IMG/VR virus record: IMGVR_UViG_3300035208_007487
Strand: one strand, 5' to 3'
DNA: 64,000 bases
Source: a virus
Lineage: Duplodnaviria > Caudoviricetes
A program made the translations under genes and the position numbers. Shown one piece after another: positions 2,087-44,908 of the stretch; position 1 is the stretch's first letter; every line of letters begins with the position of its first letter. The notes under the pieces are model-generated. The model did not search any database, was not told the origin of the DNA, and was given only the letters and a program-made list of their open reading frames with translations.

Positions 2087-2178
2087 GATTTTTCTCCATT
2101 GAAAGATTTTCTAGAATTCCTTATTAACAAGTATATATTCTAAATCCTAAGATGTCAAGAAAAAACATGAATAAAGAA

Positions 2179-2279
2179 AAAATAATTCTTCCAAAATTTA
2201 GCCTTGCAAATCAGTTCAGTCTATACTAAATTTCAAGAGATATTCAAAAGGAATAATAGATATATTAATCCATTATTCC
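2179..2279. repeat. conserved inter-cassette repeat, copy 2
   Basis: aligns with copy 1. Confidence 0.9.
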
Positions 2280-2310
2280 ATATTAAAAAATGAGTATATA
2301 TAATATATAC

Positions 2311-2334
2311 TCAATCACTCACTCAATCAATCAA
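2311..2334 (-). repeat. (TCAA/TCAC)6 tract, giving TGA in all three minus-strand frames
   Basis: tcaatcactcactcaatcaatcaa; supplies the stop of ORF 2331-2744. Confidence 0.8.
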
Positions 2335-2744
2335 TTATGTTTTTGGGACGGTGTAAACCATTGATGAGTTTCAAAAATATCATTCAAATCATTTTTGTGA
2401 GCAATAGCACCTTGCCCATTTGAATCATATACAATAGTACTATTTTTCATATTCTTGATATGAATTAACCAACTGCATAATAGCTCTGGATATTCCAATT
2501 CAGTATTACATTTGGAAATATCCTTTTCGCATTGTTCAATCAAGCCTTTAATCAAATCATGAATGAAATTATCAGAATCAAAAGGATCAAATGAACTTGG
2601 CATGAAAAACGTAGAAGGAATACTATTGTAAAGGCTAAAGAAAAGATAGCCTACCAAATTGCTATTCCAAATAATAGCCGAAACCCCAAAATTGGCCTTG
2701 ACGATGTGGTGCATATCGGCATAGAAACTGCGCTCACTTGCCAT
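2331..2744 (-). CDS. hypothetical early protein
   Basis: ORF between promoter 2786-2813 and a terminator. Confidence 0.7.
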   Translation of the reverse strand: MASERSFYADMHHIVKANFGVSAIIWNSNLVGYLFFSLYNSIPSTFFMPSSFDPFDSDNFIHDLIKGLIEQCEKDISKCNTELEYPELLCSWLIHIKNMKNSTIVYDSNGQGAIAHKNDLNDIFETHQWFTPSQKHN

Positions 2745-2785
2745 TTCATATCTTTCTTTTAGTGAGTAACATTACTCATAAGATG

Positions 2786-2813
2786 AATATAATAATTTTT
2801 GGAACTTTGGCAA
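2786..2813 (-). promoter_or_regulatory. early promoter
   Basis: TTGCCA-N16-TATATT. Confidence 0.75.
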
Positions 2814-3084
2814 CAAAAAAACCCACCTATCACAAAGTAATAAATGGGAAAGCTTTCAAATTGTAAACCGCACAAGCTTAGAGAGTTGAAAGCTTTTTTG
2901 GGCCTTAACGCAGAACAAATTGTAACGTGAGTTTTACGGCTCTCCGCGAATGTAATTCATTCGACCTCCAATGATGTACTGACAACGACAGCAAGCCCAA
3001 ATAGAGCGTGCGAATTCTATTTCTCACAATACCCAAGGTCGGGCAATAGTAGCGCCACCGAAAGTGCAGGCGGACTTCCTACAC
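2814..3084 (-). ncRNA. candidate ~265-nt small RNA or micropeptide cassette
   Basis: own promoter (3089-3116) and U-tailed end; no long ORF; hairpins; GGAGG-led 8-codon ORF MNYIRGEP. Confidence 0.45.
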
Positions 3085-3088
3085 ATAG

Positions 3089-3116
3089 AATATAATAATT
3101 TGAAAGATGCTGTCAA
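3089..3116 (-). promoter_or_regulatory. early promoter
   Basis: TTGACA-N16-TATATT followed by CTATGTG. Confidence 0.8.
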
Positions 3117-3209
3117 GCTTTTTGGGAAGAAAATAATAGAGCAATGAATCCATTATTAGTATATAAAAATGAGCATACATATAATAGGTATGCTCAATCA
3201 ATCACTCAC

Positions 3210-3506
3210 TCAATTAGGAATTAGTACACACATTTCCAGGAAGTTTTCTTTTGTGATGACCACAAGGGTGTCACCATCTTTCTCATAAATGCCCTTCAGC
3301 TCCTTTAGAAGGTCTTTATATTCTCCACAGGGGCAAGTAGCACTTTCCTCAATGTGGCCCTTTGAAACAGAGCTATGCTGACCAACATGGGCATAGCAAG
3401 TGAGATTTCCTTGTCTGTCGAAATTGACAGGAAAGGCTGCATAGATGTCGTCGTCCCCTTCGATGTCGCTATACTTGAGAAAAGTGACGTAATGAAGCAT
3501 TTTCAT
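3210..3506 (-). CDS. conserved phage early hypothetical protein
   Basis: AAGGAG RBS; motif IYAAFP...CYAHVGQHS...EYKDLLKEL; promoter at 3545-3572. Confidence 0.8.
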   Translation of the reverse strand: MKMLHYVTFLKYSDIEGDDDIYAAFPVNFDRQGNLTCYAHVGQHSSVSKGHIEESATCPCGEYKDLLKELKGIYEKDGDTLVVITKENFLEMCVLIPN

Positions 3507-6829: not shown

Positions 6830-7621
6830 CTATCTCAAATCATATTGAGAAACCTGAACATTATCAATAATTATATTATTTAGATTAACTTTAGCTCTAG
6901 TAATAATATTATCAATTGCAGTATGTGATAATAATAATTCTTCACCTAATTCTCGTAATGTCTTTTTCTTCTTCCCAAACAATCCTTCATAATTAATCAA
7001 ACAGAATTTTTCTCGTTCTTCTAATTGATTGATATATCTATGGATTAGATCTACCCTAGCCTTTACCAATATTTGGGTTAATGCATTCTCTGCATTAGGA
7101 TCGGGCACAATCTCTTCCAATGTAGTATCATTCCCATTACCTAATACAATGGGAGAATCAATTGGAGTAGTATTCAATAATGGTAGTATATTATCTTGCA
7201 ATTCTTTTTTCAATTCAGTCTCTTCAGGGGTTAGATTATCCCGTTCAAAGATTCTTAGCTTTTTTGCCTTACTTAACAGAGTGTAATAGTTATGTGGAAT
7301 ATGAATGATTGGAGCATTTCGATATTCCTTTTGACATTCAGATCTCATATAGAATCCAATATGCTTGGCAAAATGTATCTCACCTAGATACATCTTATCA
7401 TCTGCATACTTTTTGATTCCATCCATGAATCCCTTAATACAGGCAGTCATTGCAATATCAAAAGATAAGCTACTTGCTCGCTTGGCAATTTTGATTCGTA
7501 AGGGTTGATACTGAATGAATAATGAACTTACTAGGTTATTCCAATCTTGCCGATAAACTTTTCCATCTGGTCTACAAAATACTCTACAAAATTCAGCTTT
7601 ATGTGTACTGTATTCAGGCAT
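6830..7621 (-). CDS. sigma70-family RNA polymerase sigma factor (regions 2-4)
   Basis: region 4 HTH LEEREK..INYEGLFGKKKKTLRELGEELLLSHTAIDNIITRA; IHIP and D.TLEEIVPD motifs; AAGGA RBS before ATG 7621. Confidence 0.8.
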   Translation of the reverse strand: MPEYSTHKAEFCRVFCRPDGKVYRQDWNNLVSSLFIQYQPLRIKIAKRASSLSFDIAMTACIKGFMDGIKKYADDKMYLGEIHFAKHIGFYMRSECQKEYRNAPIIHIPHNYYTLLSKAKKLRIFERDNLTPEETELKKELQDNILPLLNTTPIDSPIVLGNGNDTTLEEIVPDPNAENALTQILVKARVDLIHRYINQLEEREKFCLINYEGLFGKKKKTLRELGEELLLSHTAIDNIITRAKVNLNNIIIDNVQVSQYDLR

Positions 7622-7838
7622 GGAATCCTTTTCTGGGAACAAAGAGGTTAAGCCATTAATATATTCCAATCTGATGAATAAAATTAAGATTATGAGTAAG
7701 GGGAAATTCCCTTGCCTGGATTCTAATATAGTGCAGCTATCCATAGTGGGCAAGAGAAAATTTTACATATTTTGAAACACAAAAAAGGAGAACCAAAATG
7801 GTCCTCCCTTTCATCTTATCACTTGGCTTGATTTTTGA

Positions 7839-8878: not shown

Positions 8879-9658
8879 ATGTATAATAAATCAGTAATTA
8901 ATTTAGCTAAAAAAATGAAATTAAATGGAAGCTCAATTAGCGAAATAAGTAGAAAAATTTGTGCTAGTAGATCAGCCATTAAAGAATGGGTTACTCAATC
9001 AAAAAGATACACACCTAAAAACATATTTTATAATATAACTACTTTTGAATCATTTACTAATAATATGGCAAAGTTTGAAGAATATAGAAAATCATATTAT
9101 TACTTATTGGGCCAATATTTGGGAGATGGATGCATTAGCTTAATGAAAAATAAACGAACATACGAACTACGGATAATGTGTGCTGATTCACATCCTATGA
9201 TAATTGAAGAAGTTAAGAAATCCTTAAATATAGTATTTCCATATAATAAAATACAAGATGTGAAACGTCCAGGCTGTCGTTCAATTGGAATATATTGCAG
9301 TGCGTTACCTCAAATATTTCCTCACACTGGAAAGGGCAAAAAACATAATAGAATCATTAAATTAATAGATTGGCAACTTAATTATTTAGAATCAAATAAA
9401 ATTTATTTACTAAAAGGACTATTTCATTCAGATGGATCATATTATTATTCAAAAGCGACTAATAATTATCACTATAATTTTACCAATTGCTCATTAGATA
9501 TTCATAATATTTTTCAAAATTGTTTAGAGTCATTAAACATTAGATATACCTTTAATAAAAGAAAATGTAAAAAAATATTACCTAATGATATATATTTAAC
9601 AATAATTTATCGCAAATCTGAAGTAGATAAATTATTTGAATTAATTGGGCCTAAATAA
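8879..9658 (+). CDS. free-standing double-motif LAGLIDADG endonuclease with N-terminal HTH
   Basis: YLLGQYLGDGCI and LLKGLFHSDGS motifs; HTH SISEISRKICASRSAIKEW; CATAAATA just upstream. Confidence 0.8.
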   Translation: MYNKSVINLAKKMKLNGSSISEISRKICASRSAIKEWVTQSKRYTPKNIFYNITTFESFTNNMAKFEEYRKSYYYLLGQYLGDGCISLMKNKRTYELRIMCADSHPMIIEEVKKSLNIVFPYNKIQDVKRPGCRSIGIYCSALPQIFPHTGKGKKHNRIIKLIDWQLNYLESNKIYLLKGLFHSDGSYYYSKATNNYHYNFTNCSLDIHNIFQNCLESLNIRYTFNKRKCKKILPNDIYLTIIYRKSEVDKLFELIGPK

Positions 9659-9695: not shown

Positions 9696-10060
9696 TGCCC
9701 AAGGCGGGACTTGAACCCGCACGGCCTTACGGCCAAAGCATTTTACTTACCACTATTACTTTCGTAACCAATCAATTAGATTGTTTGTGGTCTGGACTAT
9801 CCCTTCATCATATTCAATTTCTTGAAGTTAGATGGGCGATTATAGTCTCTACACCTTCCTATTACTAGGCTTGGCACGGTATTGGGTCAATATTGCTATT
9901 AGGCCGTTCACCGTTAGCAGCTTATCTAGATAAACTACCCTCAAGGGACTCTTATGTCACTACTTGAGATTACGCCTTACTACATATTCGTTTCCAAATA
10001 TGCGACCCAACCCTATTACTAGGGTTTAGTGCTCAGTGTCTACCATTCCACCACCAGGGC
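9696..10060 (-). tRNA. trnL: tRNA-Leu(UAA), intron-containing (exons 10028-10060 and 9696-9745)
   Basis: spliced 83-nt cloverleaf GCCCTGG..GGAATGGTAGACAC T GAGCA CT^TAA AA TGCTT, long variable arm GGCCGTAAGGCC, GCGGGTTCAAGTCCCGC. Confidence 0.9.
9746..10027 (-). ncRNA. group I self-splicing intron (282 nt, no ORF)
   Basis: 5' exon ends in U, intron ends in G; core motifs AATACCGTGCCAAGC, GAAGGTGTAGAGACTA, GAAGGGATAGTCC; P1 hairpin AACCCTA-GTAA-TAGGGTT. Confidence 0.9.
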
Positions 10061-10794: not shown

Positions 10795-11018
10795 AAAAAA
10801 GAGACTTGCAAGGGTTTATTCTTACAAGTCTCAATAGCACACTTCACATTTTTTAACTAGTGTACGGTAGTGTCTCACCTAGCTTACGCCCTAGCTTTTT
10901 GCATTTTGATATTTAAGGCATATGCGGAGCAAAGTCACCTGTGCCCAAGGGGATTTAGCTAGTCTCTTCTCATGTTCGCGGCCTGAGTCAAGACTTGCAT
11001 GGCTTCCTAGATCCACCT
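10795..11018 (-). ncRNA. candidate ~220-nt structured RNA
   Basis: promoter 11024-11052, terminator GAGACTTG hairpin 10795-10832, GC-rich, no minus-strand ORF. Confidence 0.5.
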
Positions 11019-11055
11019 CAACCAATATAATAAATGAATTTAATTCTGGCAAGCC

Positions 11056-11484: not shown

Positions 11485-11830
11485 AGAAAAAGACAGTGAT
11501 TAGCGTCACTGCCTTCTTCCTGGAATTAGATGCCACTCTTTTTCCTACTTTTGACTTTCAGGAGAGAATGCTGCCATCCCATTGGGATGGCCTCCCTATT
11601 ATCAAAAGTAATTGCTAGATTAAGCTCGTTTCTCAGTTCAAGCTCGTTCATATCCCTTTCACTAAATGCCGCAACTGTGCATTTAGATATTCCATCTATG
11701 ACTAACATTCCAGAAAAATGGACAAATTTTCTGGGCCTGATAGGTTATAATTTAAGCTCAATGTACTAAGCCTACACCACATGAGCCGAGTTTTCTGAGG
11801 ATTACCAGGGATTGGCTCATCCTCTCCAAC
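11485..11830 (-). ncRNA. candidate ~345-nt multi-hairpin RNA
   Basis: promoter 11837-11865; terminator near 11487-11515; at least five strong stems. Confidence 0.5.
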
Positions 11831-11958
11831 AATATGAATATAATAAATTGAACTACATGTGGCAACCTATTTGAGAAGAAAAATCTATCAACAACTTATC
11901 AACATACGAAAAAAGGTTCCCATTGCTGGAAGCCTTAAGAGTGTGTCGTATTGGTATT

Positions 11959-11990
11959 GTTTCAATCTGCGCCCCTTTAGAAGGCGGTAC
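11959..11990 (-). CRISPR. solitary type I-C-like CRISPR repeat (not an array)
   Basis: 32-nt GTACCGCCTTCTAAAGGGGCGCAGATTGAAAC: hairpin followed by an 11-nt tail ending ATTGAAAC. Confidence 0.6.
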
Positions 11991-12163
11991 TAATAGCTAA
12001 AATTACAAGAGGGGTGCAATTAATTCCCCATCTCAAATAGGCCAAATGAAGCTAAACACCTATTTGAAACTTTTTTGCATCCTAACTATATACAATCACT
12101 TGGACTGCTCATTGAATATAAAAATATTTGACTATGTGGCAACCTTTTCTACACAAATCCTAA

Positions 12164-12262
12164 AAAATAATTCTTCCAAAATTTAACCTTGCAAAGTGAT
12201 CCACTCTATACTAAATTTCAAATATATACATAAAAGAATAATATATATCTTTATCTATTATT
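12164..12262. repeat. conserved inter-cassette repeat, copy 5
   Basis: aligns with copy 1. Confidence 0.85.
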
Positions 12263-12326
12263 AATCTCAACTCACTCACTCATTTTTTATTACTACTTTA
12301 CTATTATTGAATTTATTATATCACTA

Positions 12327-31255: not shown

Positions 31256-32545
31256 CTAAATAATAGTATACATAGCATTAAATTCTTGTTTCATAGACGA
31301 GCACTGTTCCGTAAGAAACTGTAACCTCTCATCTCCACAAGCATAACTTTGGCTGGAACTCAGCCTAGTTGCAGTTTCCCGCAAATGTTTATCCATCAAC
31401 CATAGGGCATAATATTGTAGATTTTTAGCAGCGTTAACATCGCGATCATGATGCACTCCACAATTGCTACAAGTCCATTCTCTATCTGACAGTTTCAATT
31501 CGTTATGTTTATGCCCGCAAACACTACAATACCTAGAAGAAGCATAGAAGGTAGGAGCCATTATTAAATGGATTCCAGCCCAGCTACATTTATACTTCAA
31601 AGTATCTCTAATTTTACCAAAAGAAGAATCTAAAATAGAACTGGCTAATTTATGATTTTTGGACATATTTTTTGGTTTTAATGTTTCAATAACAATGACT
31701 TTTGGCTTGGCTTTTACCAAAGAACTTGCCAATTTATGCACAGCATCATTGCGGATATCCGCAACTTTCTTGTGAACTCTTGACAATCTTGTTATTGCTT
31801 TCTTTCTATTGGTACTTCCTTTAACTCTTCTAGATACCATTCTTTGATATCGTTGAAGTTTCTTTAAATGACTCTTGTATGCTTTCGGATTGTTAAATGC
31901 CTCACCTTCACTAGTAATCGCTAACTCTTTGATTCCTAAATCTACACCTAGAATATCATTAGTTTCTATTTCGCTAATTGGAGCCAACTCAGGGGCTTCA
32001 ATATCTTCTTTTATTAAAAATGAAACAAACCATCTATCTGCTTGGCGTGATACTGTTGCTTGACTTAATTTTAATTTCCCTTCTTGTATTGGATAATTCT
32101 TCTCCTTTAATCTAATCTTGCCTAATATTGGTAATTGAGCATAATTAGATGCAATATATATTGAACCTGTTAATCTAAATGAATCTTTATTTCCCTTTTT
32201 CTTAAATTTTGGATAATCTGACTTTTTAGTGAAAAATTGTTTAAAAGCATATTCTAAGTCTCTTAATGATTCCTGGCCGCAGCATTTAGACACTTCACGA
32301 ATCCAAGGAAACTCATTTTTGAGCAAGACCCATTCTTTGTGCCAATCTTGAGCATTGCCTAAAGTGCAGGGAATTTTAGGCAAATCATACATTATAGCTA
32401 AAGATTTATTAGCTTCATATTCTCTAATAAGTTTGTCTAATTCCCAATTATATGCATAACGACTAATTCCAGCACTTTTAGCACATAAAGCTTTTTGACT
32501 ATTATTGATTTTTAATTCAATCTTATAACTGTGCATTCTAATCAT
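31256..32545 (-). CDS. tnpB: RNA-guided endonuclease TnpB (IS607-type), no recognisable intact element ends
   Basis: N-terminal HTH; RuvC GVDLGIK / IETL / DRDVNAAKN; CxxC-CxxC finger; omegaRNA-overlapping tail ACGDERLQ..CSSMKQE. Confidence 0.92.
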   Translation of the reverse strand: MIRMHSYKIELKINNSQKALCAKSAGISRYAYNWELDKLIREYEANKSLAIMYDLPKIPCTLGNAQDWHKEWVLLKNEFPWIREVSKCCGQESLRDLEYAFKQFFTKKSDYPKFKKKGNKDSFRLTGSIYIASNYAQLPILGKIRLKEKNYPIQEGKLKLSQATVSRQADRWFVSFLIKEDIEAPELAPISEIETNDILGVDLGIKELAITSEGEAFNNPKAYKSHLKKLQRYQRMVSRRVKGSTNRKKAITRLSRVHKKVADIRNDAVHKLASSLVKAKPKVIVIETLKPKNMSKNHKLASSILDSSFGKIRDTLKYKCSWAGIHLIMAPTFYASSRYCSVCGHKHNELKLSDREWTCSNCGVHHDRDVNAAKNLQYYALWLMDKHLRETATRLSSSQSYACGDERLQFLTEQCSSMKQEFNAMYTII

Positions 32546-43473: not shown

Positions 43474-44908
43474 CCGTTCTAACAAATCTATGCAAAACTA
43501 TGCTCACCTTACGGCTCGCACTCAAGATGCAGAGCATGATTTTGCGATTTGAATTCTTGTTTCATAGACGAACACTGTTCCGTTAGGAACTGTAACCTTT
43601 CATCTCCACAAGCGTCACTTCCGGTGGAACTCACCGTAGATTCACCCGAAGGTGAATGTTTATCAATCATCCAAAGACCTAGATATTGTAGATTTTTAGC
43701 GGCATTGACATCTCGATCAAGATGCGTTCCACAATAGCTACAAGTCCATTCTCTATCTGATAGTTTTAAGTCATTATGTTTATGTCCACAAACACTACAA
43801 TACTTTGAAGATGCATAAAAGGCTGGAGCCATAATTAAATGAACACCATTCCATGCACACTTATACTTCAAAGTATCCTTAATCTTACCAAAGGAAGAAT
43901 CCAAAACTGCACTTGCTAGTTTGTGATTCTTGGACATATTCTTTGGTTTTAATGTTTCAATAACTATGACCTTTGGCTTGGTTTTCACCAAAGATGTTGT
44001 CAACTTATGCACACTGTCATTGCGGATGTCCGCAACTCTCTTGTGAATTCGTGACAACTTTGTTATTGCTTTCTGCTTATTTTTACTTCCTTTAACTCTA
44101 CGAGAAACCATTCTTTGATACCTTTTGAGTTTCACTAAATGTTTCTTGTAGGCTTTAGGGTTCTCGAAGGTTTCACCTTCACTGGTGATTGCTAACTCTT
44201 TTATACCTAAATCTACACCTAGAATATCACATTCTTCTATAGATTCTATTGAAGCTAAATCAGGCACATCAACTGTTTCTGGTAATAAGAATGAGACATA
44301 CCATCTATCACACTGTCTTGAAACAGTAGCTTGTGATAGCAAACACTTACCTTCGAGAATTGGGTAGTTCCTTTCCTTGAGTCTGATCTTTCCTAGATTT
44401 GGAAGTTGAACATAGTCAGATGCAATGTAGACTGAACCTGTCAATCGGAATGAATCTCTTTGTCCACGCTTCTTGAATTTAGGATAACCCGACTTATTAA
44501 TAAAGAATCGTTTAAATGCTACTTCTAGATCTCTTAATGCCTCTTGACCACAGCATTTAGAGGTTTCTCTTATCCAAGGAAGTTCAGTTTTTAATAAAAC
44601 CCAATCTTTATGCCAATCAATAGCTGATCCGAAAGTAGACGGGACTTTATTTAATCCATACATAATAGCTAAGGCTTTATTAGCTTCATATTCACTTATA
44701 AGTTTATCTAATTTCCAATTATAGGCAAAGCGAGAAGTTCCTGCGCTCTTAGCGCAGAGAACTCTTTGACTTTGATTGAGCTTTAACTCAAGCCTATAAC
44801 CACGCATCTTCATCTGTTATTATTTATTCCTCTTTTTTTGTATGAAATGTCAAGTAGTTTTGCTCAAGTTTGCCTAGTTTTGCGTAGATTTATTGGAGCA
44901 GCTACTAA
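43474..44908 (-). mobile_element. tnpB-only IS607-type element (1435 bp)
   Basis: left end AGGG|TTAGTAGCTGC with GCAAAACTA repeats; right end TAGTTTTGC..GAACGG; removal restores ...NLEKG-IYNLIDGKWISDK*. Confidence 0.85.
43509..44813 (-). CDS. tnpB: RNA-guided endonuclease TnpB
   Basis: intact RuvC D/E/D motifs and Zn finger; close paralog of 31256-32545. Confidence 0.92.
   Translation of the reverse strand: MKMRGYRLELKLNQSQRVLCAKSAGTSRFAYNWKLDKLISEYEANKALAIMYGLNKVPSTFGSAIDWHKDWVLLKTELPWIRETSKCCGQEALRDLEVAFKRFFINKSGYPKFKKRGQRDSFRLTGSVYIASDYVQLPNLGKIRLKERNYPILEGKCLLSQATVSRQCDRWYVSFLLPETVDVPDLASIESIEECDILGVDLGIKELAITSEGETFENPKAYKKHLVKLKRYQRMVSRRVKGSKNKQKAITKLSRIHKRVADIRNDSVHKLTTSLVKTKPKVIVIETLKPKNMSKNHKLASAVLDSSFGKIKDTLKYKCAWNGVHLIMAPAFYASSKYCSVCGHKHNDLKLSDREWTCSYCGTHLDRDVNAAKNLQYLGLWMIDKHSPSGESTVSSTGSDACGDERLQFLTEQCSSMKQEFKSQNHALHLECEP

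Follow-up and report, generated by a model that had tools for sequence, protein, structure and literature searches.

A single type I-C repeat spliced into a small RNA gene of a ~319-kb phage, whose RNA probably hijacks host CRISPR proteins, either as a decoy or to guide them against sister strains without the repeat

Viruses commonly carry solitary repeat units behind promoters, and 2,103 such units have been found (Camara-Wilpert et al. 2023, PMC10651486). The RNA anti-CRISPRs (Racrs) described there, such as RacrIC1 and RacrIF1, are intergenic, non-coding phage units with one repeat, a promoter of their own and no cas genes, and the type I-C RacrIC1 inhibited I-C interference. Another kind of cas-less unit is the virus-borne mini-array of inter-virus conflict, which serves as a guide unit in viruses of Sulfolobales archaea and has closely related strains in the same habitats as its likely targets (Medvedeva et al. 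2019, PMC6858448). Finally, the RNAs of the Cracr, CreR and CreA group combine a degenerate repeat with a short spacer-like stretch and a rho-independent terminator (Liu et al., bioRxiv 10.1101/2024.10.29.618823).

Canonical type I-C repeats, as in Bacillus halodurans, S. mutans, X. oryzae and D. vulgaris, have 32 nt in the format 2 + 7 + 5 + 7 + 11, with a stem-loop that ends at nt 21; Cas5c cuts after this nucleotide and leaves an 11-nt handle (PMC8524198). The B. halodurans enzyme reads mainly U22-G23-G24 and is sensitive at these positions, whereas SmuCas5c is tolerant (PMC8524198).

Here we describe a phage locus that resembles each of these systems in part. It lies in a 64,000-nucleotide stretch of viral DNA, referred to below as the window. 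Like the Racrs, it is an intergenic non-coding unit of subtype I-C with its own promoter, a single repeat and no cas genes, and the same first step would be expected of it, namely binding by the repeat-processing Cas protein. In contrast to the Racrs, its repeat sits 118 nt into a conserved small RNA and is polymorphic among strains, and its downstream flank matches repeat-less alleles in which the same sequence stands beside a PAM. Furthermore, it is ~75% like the nearest real repeat, which by our estimate probably places it below the 41.1-bit cut-off of SRUFinder. With the virus-borne mini-arrays it shares the cas-less candidate guide on a virus and, as likely targets, closely related strains in the same habitats. 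However, it has one repeat only, its 'spacer' is the downstream sequence of the gene itself instead of acquired DNA, and its host would be a bacterium with type I-C and not a Sulfolobales archaeon. The same phage also carries a classical mini-array with a leader and 1-2 strain-variable spacers. With the Cracrs, the unit shares the degenerate repeat, the rho-independent terminator and the short spacer-like stretch, here 22 nt before the hairpin, and a guide shortened in this way would give a smaller Cascade, as for I-F Cracrs (bioRxiv 10.1101/2024.10.29.618823). Unlike in the Cracrs, no match to a cas promoter or to CreR was found for it, and its spacer-like part predates the repeat.

The unit spans ~200 nt between promoter and terminator and contains no ORF of at least 30 aa on its own strand (Table 1). 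The original prediction had described an ORF-less minus-strand RNA with one 32-nt repeat, a pseudo-spacer of ~22 nt and a terminator hairpin, and we located all of these parts where it had placed them; the promoter TTGCCA-N16-TATATT likewise agreed in sequence and coordinates. This promoter belongs to a recurrent class (TTG[CG]CA-N16/17-TATA[TA]T) with 21 copies in the two contigs of the phage genome, C18 and C172, compared with ~1.4 copies expected by chance as estimated from base composition. Seventeen of the 21 copies lie on the minus strand, clustered in the cassette region, and the next promoter of the same type begins at 11865. The leader matched no Rfam family. As DNA, the terminator reads AAGGCTTCC-AGCA-ATGGGAACCTT, leading into six T, which corresponds to an RNA stem AAGGCUUCC-AGCA-AUGGGAACCUU with a C.A mismatch, followed by a U-run. 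The ~100-bp element that bounds the unit upstream was identified by a blastn comparison of the first 20 kb of the window with the assembly.

Table 1. Positions of the features of the RNA unit and of the element bounding it, in window coordinates.
Feature	Position	Strand	Description
Promoter	12115..12142	-	-35 TTGCCA 12142-12137, 16 nt, -10 TATATT 12120-12115
Leader	11991..12108	-	~118 nt, two predicted hairpins, no ORF; 5' end placed from the -10 box
Solitary divergent type I-C repeat unit (psi-R)	11959..11990	-	32 nt, GTACCGCCTTCTAAAGGGGCGCAGATTGAAAC
Pseudo-spacer	11937..11958	-	22 nt, single-stranded, AATACCAATACGACACACTCTT; segment of the conserved RNA backbone
Terminator	11909..11936	-	hairpin AAGGCTTCCAGCAATGGGAACCTT at 11936-11913, then T-run to 11909
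Copy of inter-cassette repeat element	12164..12263	.	~100 bp; bounds the RNA unit upstream, outside the RNA

The window holds another unit that lacks an ORF and has this type of promoter (~210 nt; 10801-11052, minus strand); it has a strong terminator at 10832-10801 and no Rfam match. A sigma-factor-like gene at 6830-7753 on the minus strand (phrog_351, E = 2e-13; no Pfam match) might encode the factor that reads the recurrent TTGCCA-N16/17-TATATT promoters.

The 32-mer is predicted to fold with a 4-nt 5' tail, a 6-bp stem CGCCUU/GGGGCG and a CUAAA loop. The hairpin therefore ends at nt 21 (4 + 6 + 5 + 6) and is followed by an 11-nt tail, CAGATTGAAAC in DNA and CAGAUUGAAAC in RNA, which bears out the earlier claim that exactly 11 nt follow the repeat hairpin. 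The length of 32 nt, the end of the hairpin at nt 21 and an 11-nt tail ending in AUUGAAAC with G24 kept are all shared with canonical I-C repeats (PMC8524198). On the other hand, the stem has 6 bp instead of 7, the 5' tail has 4 nt instead of 2, the repeat starts with GTACC instead of GTCGC, and C22-A23 stands in place of U22-G23; the canonical phage-type repeat has the form GTCGCC...GTGGATTGAAAC. Compared with the canonical repeat of the same phage, the window repeat is ~75% alike, with two of the three bases read by Cas5c changed (U22-G23-G24 to CAG) and a weaker stem (-6.9 versus -12.5 kcal/mol). A host enzyme that acts on the canonical repeat may therefore not process the window repeat, although natural I-C arrays with a CAG tail do exist, their repeats ending in ...GGGGCGCAGATTGAAAC.

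The 32-mer occurs once in the window and once in the whole 2.36-Mb assembly. No repeat-like sequence was found in its flanks, and no second repeat lies within 100 bp, as defines a solitary repeat unit. When both strands of the assembly were scanned for a hairpin followed by 2-4 nt and ATTGAAAC, only the window unit and the three repeats of the C172 mini-array were found. At gathering thresholds, the sole Rfam match in the window was a tRNA; permissive thresholds added only a weak match to CRISPR-DR9, in which the window unit scored 21.4 bits (E = 0.18 in the 3.1 kb searched) and the genuine C172 repeats 20.7 bits, against a gathering score of 45.

The original prediction had proposed matching the 32-mer to CRISPR repeat databases; its exact variant occurred in none of the arrays searched. 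We queried with the 3' half of the repeat, with a pattern of hairpin plus tail in a looser and a stricter form and, in metagenomes, with the exact hairpin. No array with the variant appeared in the scans of GTDB species genomes (in one of them among the matches listed; a narrower re-scan was complete), in the exact-18-mer scan of JGI metagenome contigs or in the exact-17-mer scan of IMG/VR. The matches returned were unrelated I-C arrays or chance matches in high-GC DNA, and a match on L095 proved to be a coding-region coincidence. A further scan covered 401 genomes from the order of a MAG (G041 and 400 relatives); its pattern spacing excludes the canonical repeat, so that it says little. On these searches, the window unit is a divergent, repeat-like sequence that copies no known host repeat.

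The window forms the last 64 kb of contig C18 (212,780 bp, 29% GC), and its genes are phage-like, including those for a Dda-like helicase, a sigma factor, a dCMP deaminase, TnpB-type transposases and a DNA methyltransferase. C18 ends in 96 nt that are 100% identical to the first 96 nt of C172 (106,128 bp), and the other ends of the two contigs overlap by ~93 nt at ~95% identity inside a tandem-repeat gene. Because both ends overlap, we regard C18 and C172 as one circular or permuted phage genome of ~319 kb. Two TnpB/IS605 OrfB-type genes of 429 and 434 aa lie on the minus strand of the window at 31256-32545 and 43509-44813 (phrog_506, E about 1e-106 to 1e-110).

C172 carries a canonical mini-array on its minus strand (8992-9149, locus L235). 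Behind a promoter TTGCCA-N17-TATATA and a leader, it comprises a repeat, a 32-nt spacer, a second repeat, a 33-nt spacer and a third repeat, the repeat being GTCGCCTCCTTACGGGGGCGTGGATTGAAAC. The very same sequence forms the first repeat after cas2 in a Bacteroidales MAG, on a contig with a complete I-C operon that carries a WYL regulator, cas3, cas5d, cas8c, cas7, a RhuM gene, cas4, cas1 and cas2. The type I-C connection that had been proposed for the window repeat thus gains support from within the genome itself, which holds a mini-array whose repeat also stands beside cas3-cas5-cas8c-cas7-cas4-cas1-cas2. The sister strain L256 has a mini-array with two repeats and one different spacer between flanks that are 100% identical, which indicates that the mini-array turns over, as a working guide store would. 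None of the three spacers (S1, S2 and Sx) had a target in the assembly, IMG/VR, GenBank phages, the Bacteroidales MAG or the fetched relatives. A search of the assembly found neither Cas5d nor Cas8c, and the phage has no cas genes of its own. The lineage thus carries the RNA parts of a I-C system, as the canonical mini-array attests, and these could work only with host proteins. Apart from the repeat and the type of promoter, the window unit and the mini-array showed no paralogy that was significant against shuffles.

A hairpin with a perfect 9-bp stem and an ORF of 139 aa come directly after the last repeat of the C172 mini-array. Adjoining the mini-array is a gene for an AAA ATPase (P0012; C172 6899-8470, L235), of which another sample contains an 870-aa form with Hom_end and LAGLIDADG domains, probably an intein-containing allele.

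In the bin from which the contigs come, ~1.1 Mb have 40-46% GC, whereas large contigs totalling ~1.24 Mb have 24-34% GC, so that the latter stand beside a small bacterial genome. We considered the taxonomy of the source MAG as a pointer to the host and rejected it, given the mixed GC content of the bin and the failure to find cas8c in its genus, of which 48 genomes were searched (G000 and 47 relatives).

To compare the locus among strains, we fetched relatives through the 90%-identity protein cluster of the neighbouring dCMP deaminase, which is present on many metagenome contigs; IMG/VR queried with two flanking proteins gave no close relatives. This yielded 14 alleles of the RNA unit, the window's own included. 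Promoter, leader, 22-nt stretch and terminator were present in all 14. The 32-mer, on the other hand, was present in seven, in identical form (the window, L242, L243, L245, L247, L259 and L262), and missing from the other seven (L238, L241, L246, L253-255 and L258). In L238, L241, L246 and L253-255, the 15 nt GATCAATGTTAGCTC stand exactly in its place, and in L258 a different 17-nt segment replaces it by the same boundaries. The indel begins and ends exactly where the repeat does, which argues that the 32-mer is a discrete module and not a chance resemblance. In this ~319-kb phage, a conserved small RNA gene of ~200 nt has thus had a single I-C repeat spliced into it as a separate block of 32 nt.

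The seven identical copies sit on at least two leader backgrounds, and the whole RNA unit is a mosaic, a recombination-prone spot among strains. In the closest pair, L246 without the repeat and L247 with it, the flanks are 99.7-99.9% identical, and contigs with and without the repeat have adjacent accessions, apparently from the same sequencing projects. The leader is common to both kinds of allele and varies at 19 of 124 sites. In the repeat-less alleles, the pseudo-spacer carries 2-3 substitutions; it varies at 5 of 22 sites, which is not significantly more than the leader. Since pseudo-spacer and terminator occur in all seven repeat-less alleles, they are old parts of the RNA gene. The terminator itself differs between the two kinds of allele: in every repeat-bearing allele, a G-to-A change opens the C.A mismatch in the stem, which has -8.9 kcal/mol in the window versus -15.6 kcal/mol for the perfect stem (GGGAGCC) of the repeat-less alleles.

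Compared with the window at 11830, L238 also has a 1.38-kb insertion with a D12-class DNA methyltransferase gene (2113-3490), placed precisely in the -10/start region of the promoter unit that follows. L238 lacks the group I intron in tRNA-Leu and the LAGLIDADG gene (window 9745-10025 and 8879-9658), both of which are therefore optional in this phage lineage.

The place of the repeat relative to its downstream flank may bear on its function. On the RNA-sense strand, the three bases just before the guide-equivalent sequence are CTC in all seven repeat-less alleles, which read CTC followed by AATACCAATACGACACAC... (AATACC..., or AACACC... in L258). In the repeat-bearing allele, the end of the repeat puts AAC, a 'self' context, where the repeat-less alleles have CTC. 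CTC is a functional I-C PAM, ranked second in B. halodurans and validated in Xanthomonas albilineans, and in the I-C system of Legionella pneumophila it gave 95-99.5% protection. We estimate that ~6-11% of random triplets would qualify as an I-C PAM.

The RNA probably commandeers the CRISPR proteins of the host, whether by acting as a decoy or by directing them against sister strains that lack the repeat. The reading we favour, at a probability of about 0.4, is that of a single-repeat guide aimed at these sister strains, which would also compete for Cas proteins. The unit would be transcribed from one of the recurrent promoters of the phage, whereupon host Cas5c would bind the repeat hairpin and its tail and cut after nt 21. 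The cut would leave the 11-nt handle joined to the RNA's own 3' part, on which Cas7, Cas8c and Cas11 would assemble. The resulting complex would act as a guide against the repeat-less sister strains, which carry the same 3' sequence beside a CTC PAM, while the repeat-bearing strain would be spared because the repeat has replaced the PAM with AAC. [quoted passage not shown] We infer transcription, Cas5c binding and assembly of the Cas proteins from the anatomy of the unit and from published work on I-C systems and Racrs; we likewise infer the targeting and the host's possession of a I-C system. The original prediction of a crRNA mimic thus remains a fair reading as far as the loading of host Cas proteins is concerned.

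A guide against sister strains would explain the PAM register and would fit a lineage that keeps a live mini-array. It is also consistent with the terminator, since the stem weakened by the C.A mismatch in all repeat-bearing alleles would free the guide. The match to the siblings is close and imperfect: guide and repeat-less alleles differ by 2-3 mismatches in 34 nt, and none of the seven matches perfectly. The mismatches lie at positions 19 and 20 in L238 and L241, at 8 and 20 in L253-255, at 13, 18 and 20 in L246, and at 3, 19 and 20 in L258. Each repeat-less haplotype thus has its own 2-3 changes, which in two haplotypes include positions 3 and 8, a pattern that speaks for the guide. Against it, every repeat-less allele found has at least two mismatches to the guide, the CTC could be due to chance, and the pseudo-spacer does not stand out from the leader in variability. 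Furthermore, the altered CAG tail and the weaker stem of the repeat tell against it, as does the lack of an array with this variant in the scans. The unit also differs in build from the mini-array on C172, which has a leader and the repeat-spacer-repeat arrangement: with one repeat and a guide that ends in the terminator, the window unit offers no second repeat for the usual 3' hairpin, and guide positions 23 onward fall in the terminator stem. The pseudo-spacer had no match in the assembly, IMG/VR, the GenBank phage collection, the Bacteroidales MAG or the fetched relatives, and in the literature we found no published experimental precedent for flanking DNA serving as a guide.

If the repeat does act on the siblings in this manner, it could be seen as a protein-free selfish element, a tentative and rather doubtful extension of the guide reading. 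A bare repeat placed before a PAM-flanked sequence would turn the carrier's flank into a guide, and the I-C system of the host would then destroy repeat-less sister phages and possibly convert them by recombination. The 32 nt would amount to a 'cut the rival allele' drive riding in a small RNA gene of the phage, with the carrier safe because its PAM is replaced.

The first alternative to be weighed is that the unit is a pure RNA anti-CRISPR, in which the decoy repeat would bind Cas5c and nucleate useless Cas7 complexes, thereby draining the I-C machinery of the host. The downstream sequence would then be irrelevant and the small RNA gene a mere expression platform with a strong phage promoter. 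The frequency of solitary repeat units behind viral promoters and the activity of RacrIC1 (PMC10651486) argue for such a decoy, as does the non-coding unit itself, which has both a promoter and a terminator of its own. That earlier claim, of a solitary type I-C-format repeat in a non-coding promoter-to-terminator unit of a phage, is upheld by the anatomy and the fold. Presence and absence among near-identical strains are typical of accessory anti-defence loci, and the altered Cas5c-recognition bases could yield a binder that is poorly cleaved. A decoy leaves unexplained, however, why the 3' edge of the repeat falls exactly at the start of the CTC-flanked sequence in all repeat-less alleles, and why the terminator stem is weakened in repeat-bearing alleles only. 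Moreover, the repeat is not directly behind the promoter but 118 nt from the RNA start, it is only ~75% like the phage's canonical repeat, the small ORFs nearby have no match among known Acr or other families, and no known acr homologue adjoins. We therefore consider a pure decoy somewhat unlikely.

It is less probable still that the repeat is a recombination scar or CRISPR-escape allele, the RNA having no further CRISPR-related role. A host array would have held a spacer against this site, and recombination between array and phage would have swapped the PAM and the bases upstream of it for a repeat. Such an event also predicts the PAM-to-protospacer register and a low-diversity, recently spread allele, which is what the seven identical copies on at least two leader backgrounds look like, and the mosaic nature of the unit would favour it. 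Yet what was inserted amounts to precisely one complete repeat, without remnants of a spacer upstream of it, the variant occurs in no array among those searched, and the insert is sense-oriented in a unit predicted to be transcribed. Owing to this orientation, a handle-plus-guide RNA would be made whatever the origin of the insert.

A Cracr-type regulatory RNA, guiding host Cascade to a cas or toxin promoter and shutting it off, appears highly improbable. I-C Cracrs have been reported, and CracrVA1 is built in the same way, from one repeat-like unit, a short spacer-like sequence and a rho-independent terminator (bioRxiv 10.1101/2024.10.29.618823). This role implies a host I-C cas3/cas8c promoter or CreR gene with TTC or CTC followed by AATACCAATA... 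The original prediction had suggested comparing the pseudo-spacer with host cas promoters, and the one I-C locus with the phage's repeat gave no match: its promoter regions contained no stretch of at least 9 PAM-proximal bases with a proper PAM, and the genome of the Bacteroidales MAG, which covers one candidate locus, contained no match at up to 3 mismatches. In addition, the spacer-like part and the terminator are already present in the repeat-less alleles, so that the spacer-like part was not selected to match a host promoter. The proposal that the crRNA mimic is directed at a regulatory target is therefore unsupported.

Finally, it is hardly credible that the small RNA merely has a common GC hairpin that by chance precedes ATTGAAAC: the Rfam score does fall below the gathering threshold and the fold is not unusual compared with shuffles, but this genome's genuine I-C repeats reach no higher score against that family, the 32-mer comes and goes as one indel with the exact borders of a repeat, and elsewhere in the assembly the format occurs only in the mini-array.

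Phage-borne solitary repeats and mini-arrays are already known, and in this respect the basic finding is another example of them. Two features are less ordinary: one huge phage combines a canonical I-C mini-array that varies between strains with a solitary, divergent repeat, and natural isogenic pairs with and without this repeat provide a clean test system. If the flank does serve as the guide, one 32-nt repeat would be enough to weaponise host CRISPR against sibling viruses, which would make it the smallest conceivable CRISPR-based competition or drive element. Searches for RNA anti-CRISPRs by repeat similarity alone would then miss part of the biology of such phages.
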